Assembly: GCA_044221185.1 (NCBI GenBank) | Contig: JBGAPP010000017.1 | Coordinates: 4,018-68,017, forward strand | Source of the DNA: Chthoniobacteraceae bacterium | GTDB taxonomy: Bacteria > Verrucomicrobiota > Verrucomicrobiia > Chthoniobacterales > Chthoniobacteraceae | Direction of reading: 5' to 3' | DNA: 64,000 nt | Part shown: positions 3,449 to 25,809 of the stretch, piece after piece | Layout of the letters: every line of letters begins with the position of its first letter | Position numbering within the stretch: the stretch's first letter is position 1 | Program-made: the position numbers and the translations under genes | Notes under the pieces: model-generated | Database searches by the model: none | What the model was told of the DNA's origin: nothing | The model's input: the letters and a program-made list of their open reading frames with translations, nothing else

Positions 3449-3582
3449 TCGGTCTCATCGTCGCCGACATTCCCATCGGCGAATCCTGCCATTACCCGGA
3501 CCGCAGCAAATGGTGCGTGCCCATCCCCGGGCGCCGGCTCATCCGCTCCGATGCGCTGGACTACTACGACGGGGAGGAGTGA
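3445..3582 (+). CDS. Possible 45-aa Cys-containing small protein coupled to the LuxR-type regulator
   Basis: Own translation from the GTG at 3445 (GTGA overlap with the regulator stop): (M)IGLIVADIPIGESCHYPDRSKWCVPIPGRRLIRSDALDYYDGEE*. About 89% G/C at third codon positions, which looks coding. Below the size cutoff of the ORF track. Confidence 0.4.
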   Translation: MIGLIVADIPIGESCHYPDRSKWCVPIPGRRLIRSDALDYYDGEE

Positions 3583-3585
3583 GGG

Positions 3586-4476
3586 CTAGTGCTTCTTCTC
3601 CACCGGCACGAGCGGGACGCTGTGATCCGGGAGGCTCGAATCGAGAAAGCCGAGGGCGTGCGGGAGCTTGAGGACGCGGACGCCGGCGCGCTTCTGCTCC
3701 TCGGCGAACTGCTCGTGGAGGTCGCGCATTTTCGTCCAGTGCCACTTGGGGCGGAAGTGGTGCTCGGCGTGGTAGCCGTTGTTGAACCAGAGGAGGTTGT
3801 AGAGGCGGTTGTAGCTGCTGACGCCCCAGGCGATGGGCACGTCGGGGTTGCCGCCGTAGTGGCGGTAGTAGCCGTTCAGGTAGGAGAGGCAGTGGCCGAA
3901 ATACCAGAAGGGGAGGTAGAAGAAGACCATGAAGCGCCAGTTCCACCAGAAGGCGAAGGCGAGGAGCGCGACGAAGGAGATGATTTCAAAGAGGCCGAAG
4001 CGCGCGTCGGCGGGGTTCTTCCGCTTCAGCTCGCCGTAGATCATCTTCGGGTCGTCGCGGAAGAAGCTGAGGAAGGTGTAGCGCCAGACGTTCTCCGCGT
4101 CGTCGTCGTGGCCGTGGCGGTAGATGGAGAGCCAGTCGATGGTGTCGCCCTTCTCGTCCCTGCGGTCGCTGTTGCCCTTGTGGTGCTGCTGGTGAACGCA
4201 TTCGTAGAACTGCTGCGAGAAGCCGATGGTGATGGACTCGAGCCAGCTGAATGCGCGGTTCAGCGCGTGGGAGGTGAAGTAGGGGTTGTGGAGGAAGTTG
4301 TGGGAGATGCCGTTGATGTTCCAGGAGATGCTGATGGAGAAGAGCAGCCCGCACGCGACGATGGCCCACCACGGGAGCCACGGGAAGAAGACGAACACGG
4401 CGGCGAGGCACGCGAAGTGGAAAAGACCGGCGAGCACGGGGACGATGTCGGCCTTCGAGTGGGCGAAAATTTTCAC
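3586..4476 (-). CDS. Membrane fatty-acid desaturase family protein (three His boxes)
   Basis: C-terminal 296 aa of ORF 3586..5019. His boxes HNFLH, HQQHH, HAEHH with hydrophobic segments between them. I chose the GTG at 4476 (VKIFAHSK...) because the longer N-terminal extension is Arg/Pro-rich junk that overlaps two better genes. Confidence 0.85.
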   Translation of the reverse strand: MKIFAHSKADIVPVLAGLFHFACLAAVFVFFPWLPWWAIVACGLLFSISISWNINGISHNFLHNPYFTSHALNRAFSWLESITIGFSQQFYECVHQQHHKGNSDRRDEKGDTIDWLSIYRHGHDDDAENVWRYTFLSFFRDDPKMIYGELKRKNPADARFGLFEIISFVALLAFAFWWNWRFMVFFYLPFWYFGHCLSYLNGYYRHYGGNPDVPIAWGVSSYNRLYNLLWFNNGYHAEHHFRPKWHWTKMRDLHEQFAEEQKRAGVRVLKLPHALGFLDSSLPDHSVPLVPVEKKH

Positions 4477-7309: not shown

Positions 7310-7462
7310 GGCGGTCGAAGGACGACGGTCGAAGGACGAAGGCCAGCACGGCCTGCGGAGCGAGGCACAGCACCCGGACGCAGCTTCCTGCCTTCGACCT
7401 TCGCCCTTCGTCCTTCGACCTTCTGCCCTGGGCCTTCGACCTTCGACCCTCGTCCTTCGTCC
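7310..7462. repeat. Intergenic cluster of GTCGAAGG / CCTTCGAC 8-mers forming a long imperfect inverted repeat
   Basis: ggtcgaaggacga at 7313 and 7327. Its reverse complement tcgtccttcgacc is at 7408-7420. Further ccttcgac copies are at 7391, 7433 and 7440. A small central ggcc-agcac-ggcc hairpin is also present. Confidence 0.7.
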
Positions 7463-23043: not shown

Positions 23044-23601
23044 ATGAAGAACAATGATCGGAAGAAACCGGCTGCGCGGAAGGCGCGCGGCGAAGGCAGG
23101 GCGCAGGGCGCAAGCAAGGCGCAGGGCGAAGGCAGGGTGCGGACGGCGAAGATGCAGGCGGCGCGGATTCGGAAGGCCGCGGCGGCGCGCAGGACACCGA
23201 AGGCCGCGAATATCCACAGGACCCCGGAGGCGCAGCCGGACGCGCCCGAAATGCCGGCGCGCCCGATGCGGAAGGCGGGGCGCACGCCGTGGCGGCGGAA
23301 GCACAGCGTGCCGGCCGAGCGCGTGGTGGTGGTGCCGCCCGCGCTCGTCTCCGCCGTGCAGAAGGCATATGTGGATTGGCTGTGGCAGGCTTACCGGGGC
23401 CGCAAGCGCGGCCTGGAGTATCTCGGCGGGCAGATCGGCCTGTCGCGTCCCGCGCTCACGAAGGTGCTGCAGCGCCGGAACAGCGTGCGTCTGGCGACCT
23501 TTGTGAAGGCGTGCTTTCTCCAGCCGGGAACGTGCGTGCTCGTCGCGGAGGCGGGCGGCTGGCGGCTCGTCATCCAATGGTCCCTCAACAAGGCAACCTA
23601 A
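23044..23601 (+). CDS. Basic protein with a disordered K/R/A-rich N-terminus and a C-terminal HTH-like segment
   Basis: Internal ATG of ORF 22762..23601, preceded by aaagga. MKNNDRKKPAARKARGEGRAQGASKAQGEGR...; C-terminus LGGQIGLSRPALTKVLQRRNSVRLATFVKA. Confidence 0.55.
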   Translation: MKNNDRKKPAARKARGEGRAQGASKAQGEGRVRTAKMQAARIRKAAAARRTPKAANIHRTPEAQPDAPEMPARPMRKAGRTPWRRKHSVPAERVVVVPPALVSAVQKAYVDWLWQAYRGRKRGLEYLGGQIGLSRPALTKVLQRRNSVRLATFVKACFLQPGTCVLVAEAGGWRLVIQWSLNKAT

Positions 23602-23736
23602 GTTGCCTATGCACCGCCGGGCCCCGCGCTTAGACACGCGCCCGTGCCACTGCAAACGCGACCGCCTTTCATTTGGTCCCAGAGCCTCTGGGGCCAGGGC
23701 TATTGGTCGCCGGTGGTGCAGAACCAAACCAACACC

Positions 23737-24261
23737 ATGCCAGTCCAGAACATATCCGCACAGTTCACGCCGCAGGCGTTCACCGATGTCAAAGCGGACA
23801 TCGTTGCCATTGCCCCCCAGTTCCCCGCGCTGGTCACCCTCACCGATGCCGAGCGCAAGGCGCTGCCGCGCGTGGCGGCGGGGCGCGAGGCCTTCTGCGA
23901 CACCGCCTACACCGGGGCGCAGAATTTCCCCGCCGTGGTGCCGGGCTTCATCAGCGCGGTGGAATGGGGGAAGGACGAGACCTATTACACCCAGCTCGGG
24001 GAGCTGGAAATCCTCGTGGAGTCGCTGCTGGCGAAAATCCGGGACACGAAGGGCGTGTGCGGGACCGAGCGCTACCGGCAGTCGCGCAAGTTCTACGAGG
24101 CCGTGAAGTCGGCCAAGGAGGACGTGGCCGGCCTGCAGGCGCTCTATGAGGCGCTGCGGGATCAGTTCGATGGCCAGGGGGGAAGCGGGGAAGGTGACGG
24201 AGGGGGCGGGGACGGCGGCGGCGATGGAGGGGCTGGCGGCGGTGCGGGCGGGGGCAACTAG
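23737..24261 (+). CDS. Hypothetical protein with a Gly-rich C-terminal tail
   Basis: Internal ATG of ORF 23644..24261: MPVQNISAQFTPQAFTDVKADIVAIAPQFPALVTLTDAERKALPRVAAGREAF..., ending GQGGSGEGDGGGGDGGGDGGAGGGAGGGN. I recognise no family. Confidence 0.5.
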   Translation: MPVQNISAQFTPQAFTDVKADIVAIAPQFPALVTLTDAERKALPRVAAGREAFCDTAYTGAQNFPAVVPGFISAVEWGKDETYYTQLGELEILVESLLAKIRDTKGVCGTERYRQSRKFYEAVKSAKEDVAGLQALYEALRDQFDGQGGSGEGDGGGGDGGGDGGAGGGAGGGN

Positions 24262-24262
24262 C

Positions 24263-24619
24263 CGGTGAGCCGGAATGGCTGTCTGCCGCAAATGACTCGG
24301 ATGAAGCGTCTTGGATTTTTTGAAAAACGGAGCCGGTTGTCTGAAAAGATGAGCGGGTTCTGTTTTCCGGAGAACGGGTTGTCTGGAAATGACAGCCAGT
24401 TGTCTGATAGAGACAGCCAGTTGTGCCTATCAGACAACCCGTTCTCTGCGGCAGACAGCCAGTTCTGTGTTTCAGAGAACGGGCTGTGTCTTTCAGAGAA
24501 CGGGCTGTGTTGTTCAGAGAGCGGGCTGGCCGGAGCAGACAACGAGTTCTGTCATGAAGACAACTGGCTCTGTTTCTCAGAGAACCGGTTTGTTGCCAAA
24601 GACAGGACCGGAACTGGTT
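24263..24619. repeat. Tandem array of about 14 clear (up to 17) 21-bp units, each an imperfect palindrome CAGA[C/G]A[A/G]C-N2-G[T/C]T[C/G]TCTG
   Basis: Unit starts are at 24326, 24347, 24368, 24389, 24410, 24431, 24452, 24473, 24494, 24515, 24536, 24557, 24578 and 24599. Examples are cagagaacgggctgtgtcttt and cagacaacccgttctctgcgg. The 15-nt core 24371-24385 is the exact reverse complement of 24431-24445 (flanks diverge). Local GC is about 50%. Confidence 0.9.
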
Positions 24620-24666
24620 CTGAGAATAGCCCAGCACTTCAGTGCGGGGTCATCCGATGGGAGGCG

Positions 24667-24723
24667 GGCAAAGTCCCGTCAGGGACGGCAGGACCGTTCT
24701 GCCGTCCCTTGCGGGACTTTGCC
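24667..24723. other. Very stable hairpin (11 + 12 bp perfect stems, 2x2 internal loop, 7-nt loop)
   Basis: ggcaaagtcccg-tc-agggacggcag / gaccgtt / ctgccgtccct-tg-cgggactttgcc. Confidence 0.85.
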
Positions 24724-24739
24724 TGCATCGCGCCGCAAA

Positions 24740-24767
24740 CCCAGCGCTGAAGCGCTGGGCTATTTTT
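24740..24767 (+). terminator. Rho-independent terminator
   Basis: cccagcgc, loop tgaa, gcgctggg, followed by ctattttt. Confidence 0.75.
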
Positions 24768-24796
24768 CGCCATGCTTTCTCCGCACGTTGTCAACA

Positions 24797-24969
24797 AACC
24801 GGATAGGCATGGAAGAAACCATGCCTATCCGGTTGTTTGGCAAAGCGCGAGGGGAGAAGGTGGAGCGTGACCTCCGGGCACGCTTCTGCCGGGCGAAATG
24901 CCAGGAAACGCGCCCGGAGGTCGCATTCCACCCCGGCTTGGCAGGCAACCGGATAGGCATGGAAGAAAC
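24797..24969. repeat. Three copies of a 16-23-nt sequence: an adjacent hairpin pair plus a distal direct copy, giving 17-bp inverted repeats around a segment of about 110 bp
   Basis: aaccggataggcatggaagaaac occurs at 24797-24819 and 24947-24969 (direct repeat). ccatgcctatccggttg at 24819-24835 is the inverse of caaccggataggcatgg at 24946-24962. An inner 11-bp inverted repeat is gacctccgggc (24869-24879) / gcccggaggtc (24912-24922). Confidence 0.85.
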
Positions 24970-25027
24970 GCAAATCCCAAATCCAAAATCCTAACTCTTA
25001 AATCCTAACTCCCAACTCCCCTATCCC

Positions 25028-25744
25028 ATGCCCTTCGACCCCACCTTCCCCACGCCCAACACTCTCGCCGATGCGGACCTGATGCGCTCGCAGCTCAATG
25101 CGCTGAACGACCGCATTGACACCATCCCCGCCGGCCCGCCCGGGGTGCCCGGGGCTCCCGGGCAGGGCTTCACCTTCCGCGGGGACTGGGAGGAGAGCAC
25201 GGTGTATGCGCCCTTCGACGTGGCCGTGTGGATTGGCTCGGCCTTTGTCTGCCTCGCCACGACCACGGGGCCGGGCCAGCCGCCGCCGGATGCGGACGCC
25301 GCGCACTGGCACGTGCTCGCGCAGCGGGGCGGCGACGGCGCGCCGGGGACGGACGGCATCAATGGCAGCGATGGCTCCCCCGGTGCGCAGGGGCCGCAGG
25401 GGCCGCAGGGGCCGCCGTTTGCGAGTGCGCTGGTGGATGCGGTGAACACGCTGCCGCCGGGCAGCCCGGCGGGCGCGTCGGTGACGTTCGACGGGACGAA
25501 TGTGCGCTTCACCTTCAGCCTCCCCGCGGGGGCGGATGGGACGAGCGGCGCCGACGGCGCGCCGGGCGAGGTGACGAATGCGGCCCTCAGCGCCGCGCTC
25601 GCCGCCGCCATCGAGGGCACGAGCGGGAACACGAATGCGGTGCCGACGCTGGACGCGGCGTTCACGAACGACCCGCTCTCACTCGCCGAGGGGGAGCTGC
25701 TGCGCGCGAAGCTGAATGAGCTGATTTTGAATGGCAGGCGATAG
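25028..25744 (+). CDS. Collagen-like (G-X-Y) repeat protein resembling phage tail-fibre proteins
   Basis: GPPGVPGAPGQG; GGDGAPGTDGINGSDGSPGAQGPQGPQGP; GADGTSGADGAPG. FTFRGDWEESTVYAPFDVAVWIGSAFVCL...HWHVLA resembles the small carbohydrate-binding-like module common in tail fibres. Coiled termini (DLMRSQLNALNDRIDTI; ELLRAKLNELILNG). Confidence 0.65.
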   Translation: MPFDPTFPTPNTLADADLMRSQLNALNDRIDTIPAGPPGVPGAPGQGFTFRGDWEESTVYAPFDVAVWIGSAFVCLATTTGPGQPPPDADAAHWHVLAQRGGDGAPGTDGINGSDGSPGAQGPQGPQGPPFASALVDAVNTLPPGSPAGASVTFDGTNVRFTFSLPAGADGTSGADGAPGEVTNAALSAALAAAIEGTSGNTNAVPTLDAAFTNDPLSLAEGELLRAKLNELILNGRR

Positions 25745-25797
25745 GGAGCAGGGAGCAGGGAGCAATCGACAATCCGCAATCCGCAATCCGCAATCCG
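25744..25797. repeat. Two heptanucleotide microsatellites: (GGGAGCA)x3 then (CAATCCG)x4 plus one degenerate unit
   Basis: gggagcagggagcagggagca at 25744-25764; caatcga caatccg caatccg caatccg caatccg at 25763-25797. They lie between two convergent stop codons. Confidence 0.9.
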
Positions 25798-25809
25798 CGC
25801 GCGGGTCCC

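Follow-up and report, generated by a model that had tools for sequence, protein, structure and literature searches.

Genomic setting of the repeat array

The stretch of DNA considered here, hereafter the window, comprises 64,000 nucleotides (64 kb) of a contig from a Chthoniobacteraceae bacterium. It carries a tandem array of imperfectly palindromic 21-bp units, which follows two small protein genes and a short leader, and precedes a gene for a collagen-like protein (Table 1). The array is periodic and dyad-symmetric, is homologous across loci (designated L121, L122 and so on), and is linked to the same small gene cassette. The property that is conserved among these loci is the symmetry of the DNA and the spacing of its units, not the unit sequence or an encoded peptide.

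Table 1. Features of the array and its surroundings, in window coordinates.
Feature	Position	Strand	Description
185-aa protein gene	23044..23601	+	Open reading frame; very basic N-terminal half; putative array binder
205-aa all-helical protein gene	23644..24261	+	Gly-rich tail; 24 homologues at 60-70% identity
Leader	24262..24325	+	Motif CTGCCGCAAATGACTC at 24284-24299, then a T/A-rich stretch
Repeat array	24326..24598	.	Unit CAGA-SARC-NN-GYTS-TCTG; core AGAAC-NN-GTTCT; 11 other loci with homologous arrays
Degenerate 14th unit and perfect core	24599..24621	.	Unit at 24599-24619; perfect GAACTGGTTC core at 24611-24620
Long hairpin with terminator	24623..24769	+	Near-perfect, ~145 nt; intrinsic terminator at its base (stem 24740-24759 plus T-run, to 24769)
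Palindromes	24782..24969	.	AACCGGATAGGCATGG-AAGAAA-CCATGCCTATCCGGTT; 28-nt-arm hairpin 24859-24932; third half-copy 24947-24969
Heptanucleotide repeat	24971..25027	+	C/A-rich, CAAATCC, ~8 copies, abutting the collagen-like start codon
Collagen-like gene	25028..25744	+	238 aa, Gly-X-Y repeats; Pfam Collagen 1.7e-6; PHROG tail-fibre families, weak

Thirteen contiguous units of 21 bp each, all imperfect palindromes, are convincing in a register read from 24326, and are exemplified by CAGAGAACGGGCTGTGTCTTT and CAGACAACCCGTTCTCTGCGG. A previous interpretation made from the letters of the window (the sequence-only reading) had counted fourteen. Its last unit is degenerate, and the perfect core beside it lies 29 nt past the preceding core and is therefore out of register. 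Identity at a lag of 21 nt reaches 0.59 across 24326-24619, against a maximum of 0.397 for any lag in 2000 shuffles. The next-ranked lags are 42 and 63, and the array stretch has the top lag-21 value among all 294-nt stretches of the window. Tandem Repeats Finder likewise reports a period of 21 at 24378-24528, and a repeat search returns nine copies at 21-nt spacing.

The dyad CAGASARCNNGYTSTSTG (CAGASARC-NN-GYTSTCTG) is equally confined. When up to two mismatches are allowed, it has 18 matches in the window, where 1.1 are expected, and all 18 fall inside 24326-24574. Individual units score 3-7 of 8 for dyad pairing, compared with a background mean of 2.18. The reverse complement of the segment at 24371-24385 (AGAACGGGTTGTCTG) recurs exactly at 24431-24445, and the GC content of the array drops to 0.495-0.525. 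On each of these points, namely the 21-nt period, the dyad, the reverse-complement identity and a fall in GC to about 50%, the sequence-only reading was correct.

Its boundaries have had to be redrawn. The array had been placed 2 nt past the stop codon of the upstream gene, with weak units occupying 24263-24325. The true start lies about 65 nt past that stop codon, and the intervening DNA is a non-repeat leader with homologous counterparts of fixed length in related loci. The leader measures ~65-70 nt from stop codon to first unit (CTGCAAATGCCTGC...TTTAATT), and an alignment of nine loci yields the consensus TTTTCTGCAAATGCCTGC-N11-TTTAATTnAGGTGCC at a fixed distance from both. It also accompanies the two arrays that have no adjoining protein gene (L142 and L143). 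Leaders scanned for promoters contained no sigma-70 consensus, and by eye their spacing is also unfit for sigma-54. The upstream gene itself, first drawn at 23737-24261, is extended by homology to the 205-aa reading frame listed in Table 1.

A cassette shared by at least twelve loci

The layout of a ~200-aa protein gene, leader, 21-bp array and, usually, a small collagen-like gene recurs in at least 12 independent loci. The array, which had been described as lying in an orphan islet, is thus part of a conserved cassette. The same architecture is present in the window and in L121, L123, L126, L127, L130, L131, L133, L134, and L144, while L142 and L143 have the leader and array alone. The full order is a basic helix-turn-helix (HTH)-like gene, the ~200-aa helical gene, leader, array, and collagen-like gene. 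All homologue contigs that reach far enough carry a 21-bp array at the equivalent place. Assemblies with identical arrays were grouped, so that L123 also represents L122, L124, and L125, and L131 also represents L132; the arrays are identical across the four independent assemblies L122-125, and likewise between L131 and L132. The loci belong to uncultured Verrucomicrobia-type bacteria, with one homologue labelled Chthoniobacteraceae. L142 and L143 were located by a protein search with array-implied peptides; the 200-aa gene is missing from both, and L143 retains a remnant of the collagen-like gene directly after the array. A metagenome search by protein alignment returned two short contigs only.

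Outside the cassette, neighbouring genes differ between loci, and the cassette is therefore an independent module. In the window they include a P-type ATPase gene and exopolysaccharide (EPS) export genes, in L121 and L127 GAF histidine kinase genes, and in L122-125 and L144-146 a gene for 3-deoxy-D-arabino-heptulosonate 7-phosphate (DAHP) synthase. A tyrosine integrase gene adjoins the cassette in L130, and Y1 and IS66 transposase genes are found in L131.

The most constant protein partner of the array is the product of the 200-aa gene. An AlphaFold2 (AF2) model of the 205-aa protein (predicted local distance difference test score, pLDDT, 80) consists entirely of helices, has no fold match in PDB or BFVD, and contains no recognisable DNA-binding fold. 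A profile built from 22 close homologues retrieves 1781 cluster representatives (at 50% identity) with E<=1e-3, and 568 with E<=1e-10. Members of this wider family are ~160 aa long, with an MPYQNISA-like start and a Gly/Pro-rich tail, and range from Verrucomicrobia to Bacteroidota (MBI4929937.1, a protein from a metagenome-assembled genome) and a Chromatiaceae plasmid. The family has no relative in Pfam, PHROG, NCBIfam, PADLOC or PDB. The plasmid homologue, WP_100922920.1 on Thiodictyon pTs417, has no array beside its gene, so the array characterises the Verrucomicrobial subfamily and not the family at large. Close family members are absent from 72,556 PLSDB plasmids, 50,697 INPHARED phages, and IMG/VR, and remote members have no phage match.

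In the lineage linked to DAHP synthase, the 200-aa gene is decaying and the leader and array are intact (L144 3880-4430, also L145 and L146; L122-125). The L144 copy has a frameshift and a premature TAA, and in P0021 the C-terminus is frameshifted.

The 185-aa protein encoded further upstream is less readily classified. Its C-terminal part aligns weakly with XRE/HTH_3 proteins at the equivalent position in related cassettes, a position that is occupied by genuine HTH_3 proteins in L130 and L133. Homologous open reading frames (ORFs) lie 5' of the 200-aa gene in L121 (an uncalled ORF at 3524-3976, 37% identity), L126, L131, and L127. The protein has no Pfam match, hhalign gives a probability of 25%, and the single-sequence AF2 model of the putative HTH domain (pLDDT 53) is unusable. 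Of the earlier description of a basic HTH protein, the basic character holds for the N-terminal half, whereas the HTH label amounts to this weak alignment with proteins in the same position.

Symmetry and spacing outlast the unit sequence

Units differ markedly in sequence from one locus to another. The consensus is GGT-GAAC-TG-GTTC-AGGT in L123, L126, L131, L134, L143, and L144; GGT-GAAT-GA/TC-ATTC-ACC in L121, L127, and L142; GGGA-GAAT-GA-GTTC-TG in L133; and CAGA-GARC-NN-GYTS-TCTG in the window. The core is accordingly TGAAC-NN-GTTCA or TGAAT-NN-ATTCA in relatives and AGAAC-NN-GTTCT in the window, with L133 bridging the AGAAC and TGAAC types. The changes between locus consensuses are symmetric: positions 4 and 15 go from T/A to A/T, and positions 8 and 11 from C/G to T/A. 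Computed over 127 units, the information profile mirrors itself across the centre of the dyad (r = 0.89). Spacing is similarly strict, with 113 of 124 intervals at 21 bp, eight at 22, two at 20, and one at 19.

In several arrays, the first unit is centred on CTAG and so forms a perfect GAACTAGTTC palindrome (L126 4657, L134 3239, L144 4497). In L121, L127, L130, L134, and L144, the first unit is 22 bp, rather than 21, from the second. The CTAG-centred first unit may be a conserved nucleation or boundary site.

Repeats of this kind could also arise as a neutral minisatellite without function, homogenised by slippage and unequal exchange, with its symmetry renewed by template-switch correction of quasipalindromes. 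Such an origin would explain why units are more alike within a locus than between loci (concerted evolution), why copy number varies from 5 to 17 units between loci, and why arrays outlast a partner gene that is pseudogenised (L144) or missing (L142, L143). However, position, leader, orientation, period, and dyad core are all kept across cassettes whose proteins are only 60-70% identical, insertions and deletions are limited to 2 bp either side of 21, and the array is identical in four independent assemblies. GAAY-NN-RTTC is kept in every lineage, which would be unexpected for a neutral repeat. A functionless minisatellite is thus improbable.

The array is almost certainly not a gene

Across the window array, the three frames of the forward strand contain one, five and zero stops, and those of the reverse strand zero, six and one; the earlier statement that four of six frames stay open therefore applies fully to two of them, the other two having one stop each. 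One alternative is that the array codes for a heptad-repeat protein of the form x-[DEV]-N-x-[FL]-x-x (window ORF 24265-24750). The heptad frame has no stops in the window and L133, and over 99 units it has 9 stops, compared with a column-shuffle expectation of 23.6 +/- 3.0; its symmetric counterpart on the opposite strand has 21. In some loci, the V and F found at heptad positions a and d, respectively, are compatible with a coiled coil, and in five loci a conserved leader ATG is in frame.

Against this, a search of 5.8 billion clusters returned no protein homologous to the window ORF. Spacings of 19, 20, and 22 nt, together with in-frame stops, break the frame in L121, L123, L126, L127, L130, L131, L134, and L144, and the first unit itself carries TAG in L126, L134, and L144. 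There is no 3-nt periodicity, as information at the three codon positions is 0.81/0.75/0.65 when pooled and 1.14/1.13/1.14 per locus, and third positions are constrained like first positions. The leader ATG is missing in four of nine loci and has no ribosome-binding site. The stop deficit is itself overstated, because the column-shuffle null is inflated by splitting the centre dinucleotides GA/TC and TG/CA. The test that the sequence-only reading had set for its own refutation comes out on its side: syntenic loci keep the dyad and the period, and the implied heptad varies (ENGLCLS in the window, VNEFTxx in L121, VNWFRSE in L134) and its frame breaks. Consequently, the array is almost certainly no gene, and a heptad-repeat protein is very hard to credit.

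The array nevertheless misleads gene callers, as had been predicted. ORFs are called on it in L121, L123, and L133, and public records hold heptad-repeat 'proteins' on either strand, such as P0025 on the leader strand and P0026 on the opposite strand. P0025 (L142 2493-3149) has been annotated by JGI as 'archaellum component FlaC', and is very likely a spurious ORF on coiled-coil-like heptads.

The interval between the array and the collagen-like gene

Collagen-like homologues stand straight after the array in L121, L127, L130, and L133. The distance from the end of the array to their start codon is only ~27 nt in L133 and ~45 nt in L130. Because this leaves no room for a separate promoter, the array in these two loci lies inside the transcription unit.

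Inserted hairpins and a terminator, which the other loci lack, break this link in the window (24623-24969). The hairpin and terminator that the sequence-only reading had reported after the array are present, as a long hairpin and an intrinsic terminator at 24740-24769. The segment 24623-24767 has a folding energy of -120.5 kcal/mol (z = -11.6), and the terminator stem matches Rfam Acido-Lenti-1 at 32.2 bits, compared with a gathering score of 37. Since the hairpin is absent from syntenic loci, and so specific to this genome, it looks like an insertion, perhaps resembling a miniature inverted-repeat transposable element (MITE). The palindromes that follow, of which AACCGGATAGGCATGG-AAGAAA-CCATGCCTATCCGGTT is perfect, are probably also inserted material outside the conserved cassette; CCGGATAGGCATGG is found nowhere else in the window, and the third half-copy lies 150 nt downstream.

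C/A-rich tracts with a 7-nt period, like that abutting the collagen-like start codon in the window, occur at the equivalent place in L121 and L130. Other heptanucleotide repeats in the window are (AGGGAGC)3 and (GCAATCC)5, just past the stop of the collagen-like gene (25743-25798), and (CCTTCGA)10 at 7391-7459. These tandem repeats could be slippage-based switches.

Duplex DNA or RNA

If the array is transcribed, as it must be in L130 and L133, it might act as RNA, whether by giving the collagen-like mRNA a structured 5' leader, by serving as a protein sponge, or as a repeat RNA of the antitoxin kind, and be transcribed from the leader or together with the upstream gene. The leader stays with the array where the protein gene is absent (L142, L143), unit orientation relative to the leader is fixed, a strong terminator follows the array in the window, and the predicted RNA fold is stable (-140.7 kcal/mol, z = -8.1). 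However, low folding energy is expected of palindrome-rich sequence generally, and a single unit can form at most a 4-5-bp stem with a 2-4-nt loop. Complementarity within units does not exceed that of within-locus shuffles at any mirror pair, so that covariation is lacking, and G-T mismatches (54) are in balance with A-C mismatches (45; p = 0.42), which leaves no G-U excess on either strand. No Rfam family reaches threshold, PADLOC detects no ToxN, AbiQ, CptN or TenpN-like protein, and the leaders are without a consensus promoter. A role as RNA is unlikely.

The two halves of a unit instead follow the consensus of their locus, and consensuses change symmetrically between loci. These patterns are those predicted for a homodimer that reads duplex DNA, rather than for hairpin pairing. 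In principle, the same behaviour of half-sites could also be obtained through template-switch correction of quasipalindromes combined with homogenisation of the array.

A proposed track of sites for a dimeric protein

The interpretation that we favour, with chances that we judge to be about even, is that the array is non-coding and offers a phased row of dyad sites, along which a dimeric protein would assemble cooperatively on one face of the helix. The regular two-turn period, dyad symmetry, and non-coding character noted by the sequence-only reading are indeed the geometry of protein-site arrays. A further point in favour is that unrelated phage contigs contain the TGAAC-NN-GTTCA core as two to three operator-like sites at 21-bp intervals. 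Protein binding, the identity of the binder, and the regulatory outcome are what we infer from sequence comparison.

The 13-14 dyad sites, one per two helical turns, would each accept a dimer. All dimers would then lie on the same face of the helix, and could form a cooperative filament over ~290 bp. Because the array lies inside the transcription unit, directly upstream of the collagen-like gene, such a filament may gate that gene, and setting or blocking transcription into it would be its most likely job. The binder is probably among the cassette's own proteins, and the basic HTH-like protein is, by its type, the obvious putative candidate. Orphan arrays (L144, L142, L143) would either be served by a trans-acting binder or be relics.

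Several observations weigh against this interpretation. A distance of only 7 bp between half-site centres is atypical of classical HTH dimers. Unit flanks are asymmetric and keep a constant orientation to the leader (GGTGAAC..GTTCAGGT), which a symmetric site does not need. Conservation of the HTH-like protein is poor (14-37% identity), L122-125 and L144-146 lack it, and the array persists beside a 200-aa gene that is pseudogenised (L144) or absent (L142, L143), so that a cis-encoded binder is not always present. In the window, no copy of the dyad marking a promoter was found outside the array. The shortage of stops in one frame, 9 where column shuffling gives 23.6 +/- 3.0, likewise counts against it.

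Comparison with known systems

Plasmid iterons, such as those of R6K, RK2, pPS10, and P1, are repeats of 17-22 bp, phased ~22 bp apart, which are asymmetric and bound by winged-helix Rep monomers. The array resembles them in unit length, two-turn phasing, contiguity, and the adjoining A/T-rich stretch and small gene. It differs in that its units are palindromic, and neither a Rep-like protein nor a replicon context is present. Contiguous repeats of 17-22 bp at two helical turns are certainly there, given the spacings above, whereas neither upstream protein matches any family in Pfam, NCBIfam, PHROG or PADLOC, and the all-helical 200-aa protein has no match in PDB.

The array could be a cis-acting site belonging to a small element, mobile or formerly autonomous, either as replication-origin iterons or as a centromere like sopC or parC, with the cassette proteins acting as initiator or centromere-binding protein. 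Its 21-22-bp phasing and copy number recall iteron sets and sopC/parC-type centromeres, and a short A/T-rich stretch adjoins it. It comes directly after the second gene of a two-gene module, just as sopC lies behind sopB (PMC3177203), and the cassette occurs in unrelated contexts, including beside an integrase gene (L130) and with Y1 and IS66 transposase genes (L131). However, gene tables and family scans reveal no Rep-type initiator and no ParA, ParM or TubZ nucleoside triphosphatase (NTPase) in any locus, a recombinase is missing from most loci, and the 200-aa family is absent from the plasmid, phage, and viral collections listed above. All loci are on large, chromosomal-looking contigs (121,926 bp for the source contig of the window), so that an autonomous replicon is not in evidence. 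We consider such an origin improbable.

The closest centromere for comparison is sopC of the F plasmid, which is reported to be built from a 43-bp unit directly repeated 12 times, with SopB binding a 16-bp inverted repeat within each unit (PMC3177203). The two elements share an organisation as tandem direct repeats with a palindromic motif, present in 12-14 copies after the last gene of a small operon, with the potential to form a nucleoprotein complex. In contrast, the unit here is 21 bp, no SopA/ParA ATPase or ParB-family protein is encoded, the setting is chromosomal, and a collagen-like gene follows. The adjoining two-gene module is not recognisable as a par operon, and no partner NTPase is found in the cassette at any of the 12 loci. 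The earlier label 'iteron/centromere-like' is therefore fair for the geometry and the likely mode of action, whereas membership of either family fails on its defining components.

Ribbon-helix-helix (RHH) proteins offer a second comparison. In the omega heptads of pSM19035 and the ParR/parC systems of R1 and pSK41, dimers polymerise on one face of DNA with units of 7, 10, 11 or 20 bp, and arrays of this type combine regulation with another role. The array here shares the many short contiguous sites, and its 7-bp half-site spacing suits beta-ribbon readers better than HTH readers. It differs in unit and spacing, and neither an RHH protein nor a partner NTPase was found.

Type III toxin–antitoxin systems also pair a short tandem array with a protein gene. 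ToxI units of ToxIN are ~34-36 nt long and fold into pseudoknots, and the gene downstream encodes an endoribonuclease. The likeness lies in the order of tandem short-repeat array, terminator (in the window), and protein gene. Here, by contrast, units are 21 nt and the downstream gene is collagen-like; PADLOC finds no endoribonuclease, and there is no RNA covariation, G-U bias or Rfam match.

Repetitive extragenic palindromes (REP) and bacterial interspersed mosaic elements (BIME) are dispersed, many-copy palindromes with GTAG or CGTC tags (PMC3733652). As with REP, the units here are short imperfect palindromes just past a stop codon, REP being sometimes clustered, and a Y1 transposase gene lies near L131. 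Unlike REP, all copies in the window are in one array, head-to-tail at a strict 21 bp, and are tied to one gene family. REP/BIME was rejected on this confinement of all 18 dyad matches and on the absence of the tags. CRISPR was rejected because only 3-5 variable nt separate the 16-18-nt palindromes and the only CRISPR match in Rfam, CRISPR-DR41, scores 16.4 bits (E = 4.8), far under its gathering score of 36. A multi-core precursor of ribosomally synthesised and post-translationally modified peptides (RiPPs) was rejected as well, since Ser/Cys heptads are confined to the window and L133, and the neighbourhood encodes no modifying enzymes.

Pattern searches beyond the cassette gave no further arrays. 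A wider genome scan for CAGASARC three times at 21-bp spacing returned 120 loci, almost all of them 7-bp microsatellites like (CAGAGAA)n and none with the dyad unit. Genomes of Saprospiraceae, Acidobacteriaceae, Bacteroidia, and other groups are strikingly rich in the repeats (CAGAGAA)n, (CAGACAA)n, and (CAGACAG)n. Viral contigs scanned for two adjacent TGAACNNGTTCA units contained phage operator-like pairs and coding repeats, and no array. Four IMG/VR phage contigs have two to three TGAACAnGTTCA palindromes, 21 bp apart, in palindrome-rich intergenic DNA (L136 3109-3185, L137 904-945, L138 9245-9315, L141 4220-4295); these are operator-like and unrelated to the cassette.

Implications for Verrucomicrobiota-type bacteria

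The sequence-only reading knew of no described element with this unit, and searches of Rfam and the literature have produced none, so the element looks undescribed. It is possible, although we put this forward tentatively, that the leader, array, and ~200-aa helical protein form an undescribed protein–DNA system of Verrucomicrobiota-type bacteria. The protein would be a DNA-binding protein of a new kind that polymerises on the palindrome track, and would either switch the gene for the collagen-like surface fibre on or off or mark a small mobile cassette for maintenance without a canonical Rep protein or Par NTPase.

If the array is bound by protein, this would provide the first functional handle on a large unannotated family, that of the 1781 cluster representatives. 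It would also establish a new type of phased operator-like or centromere-like array that operates without the usual Rep or Par partners, and would reveal how a little-studied phylum controls its small collagen-like surface proteins.

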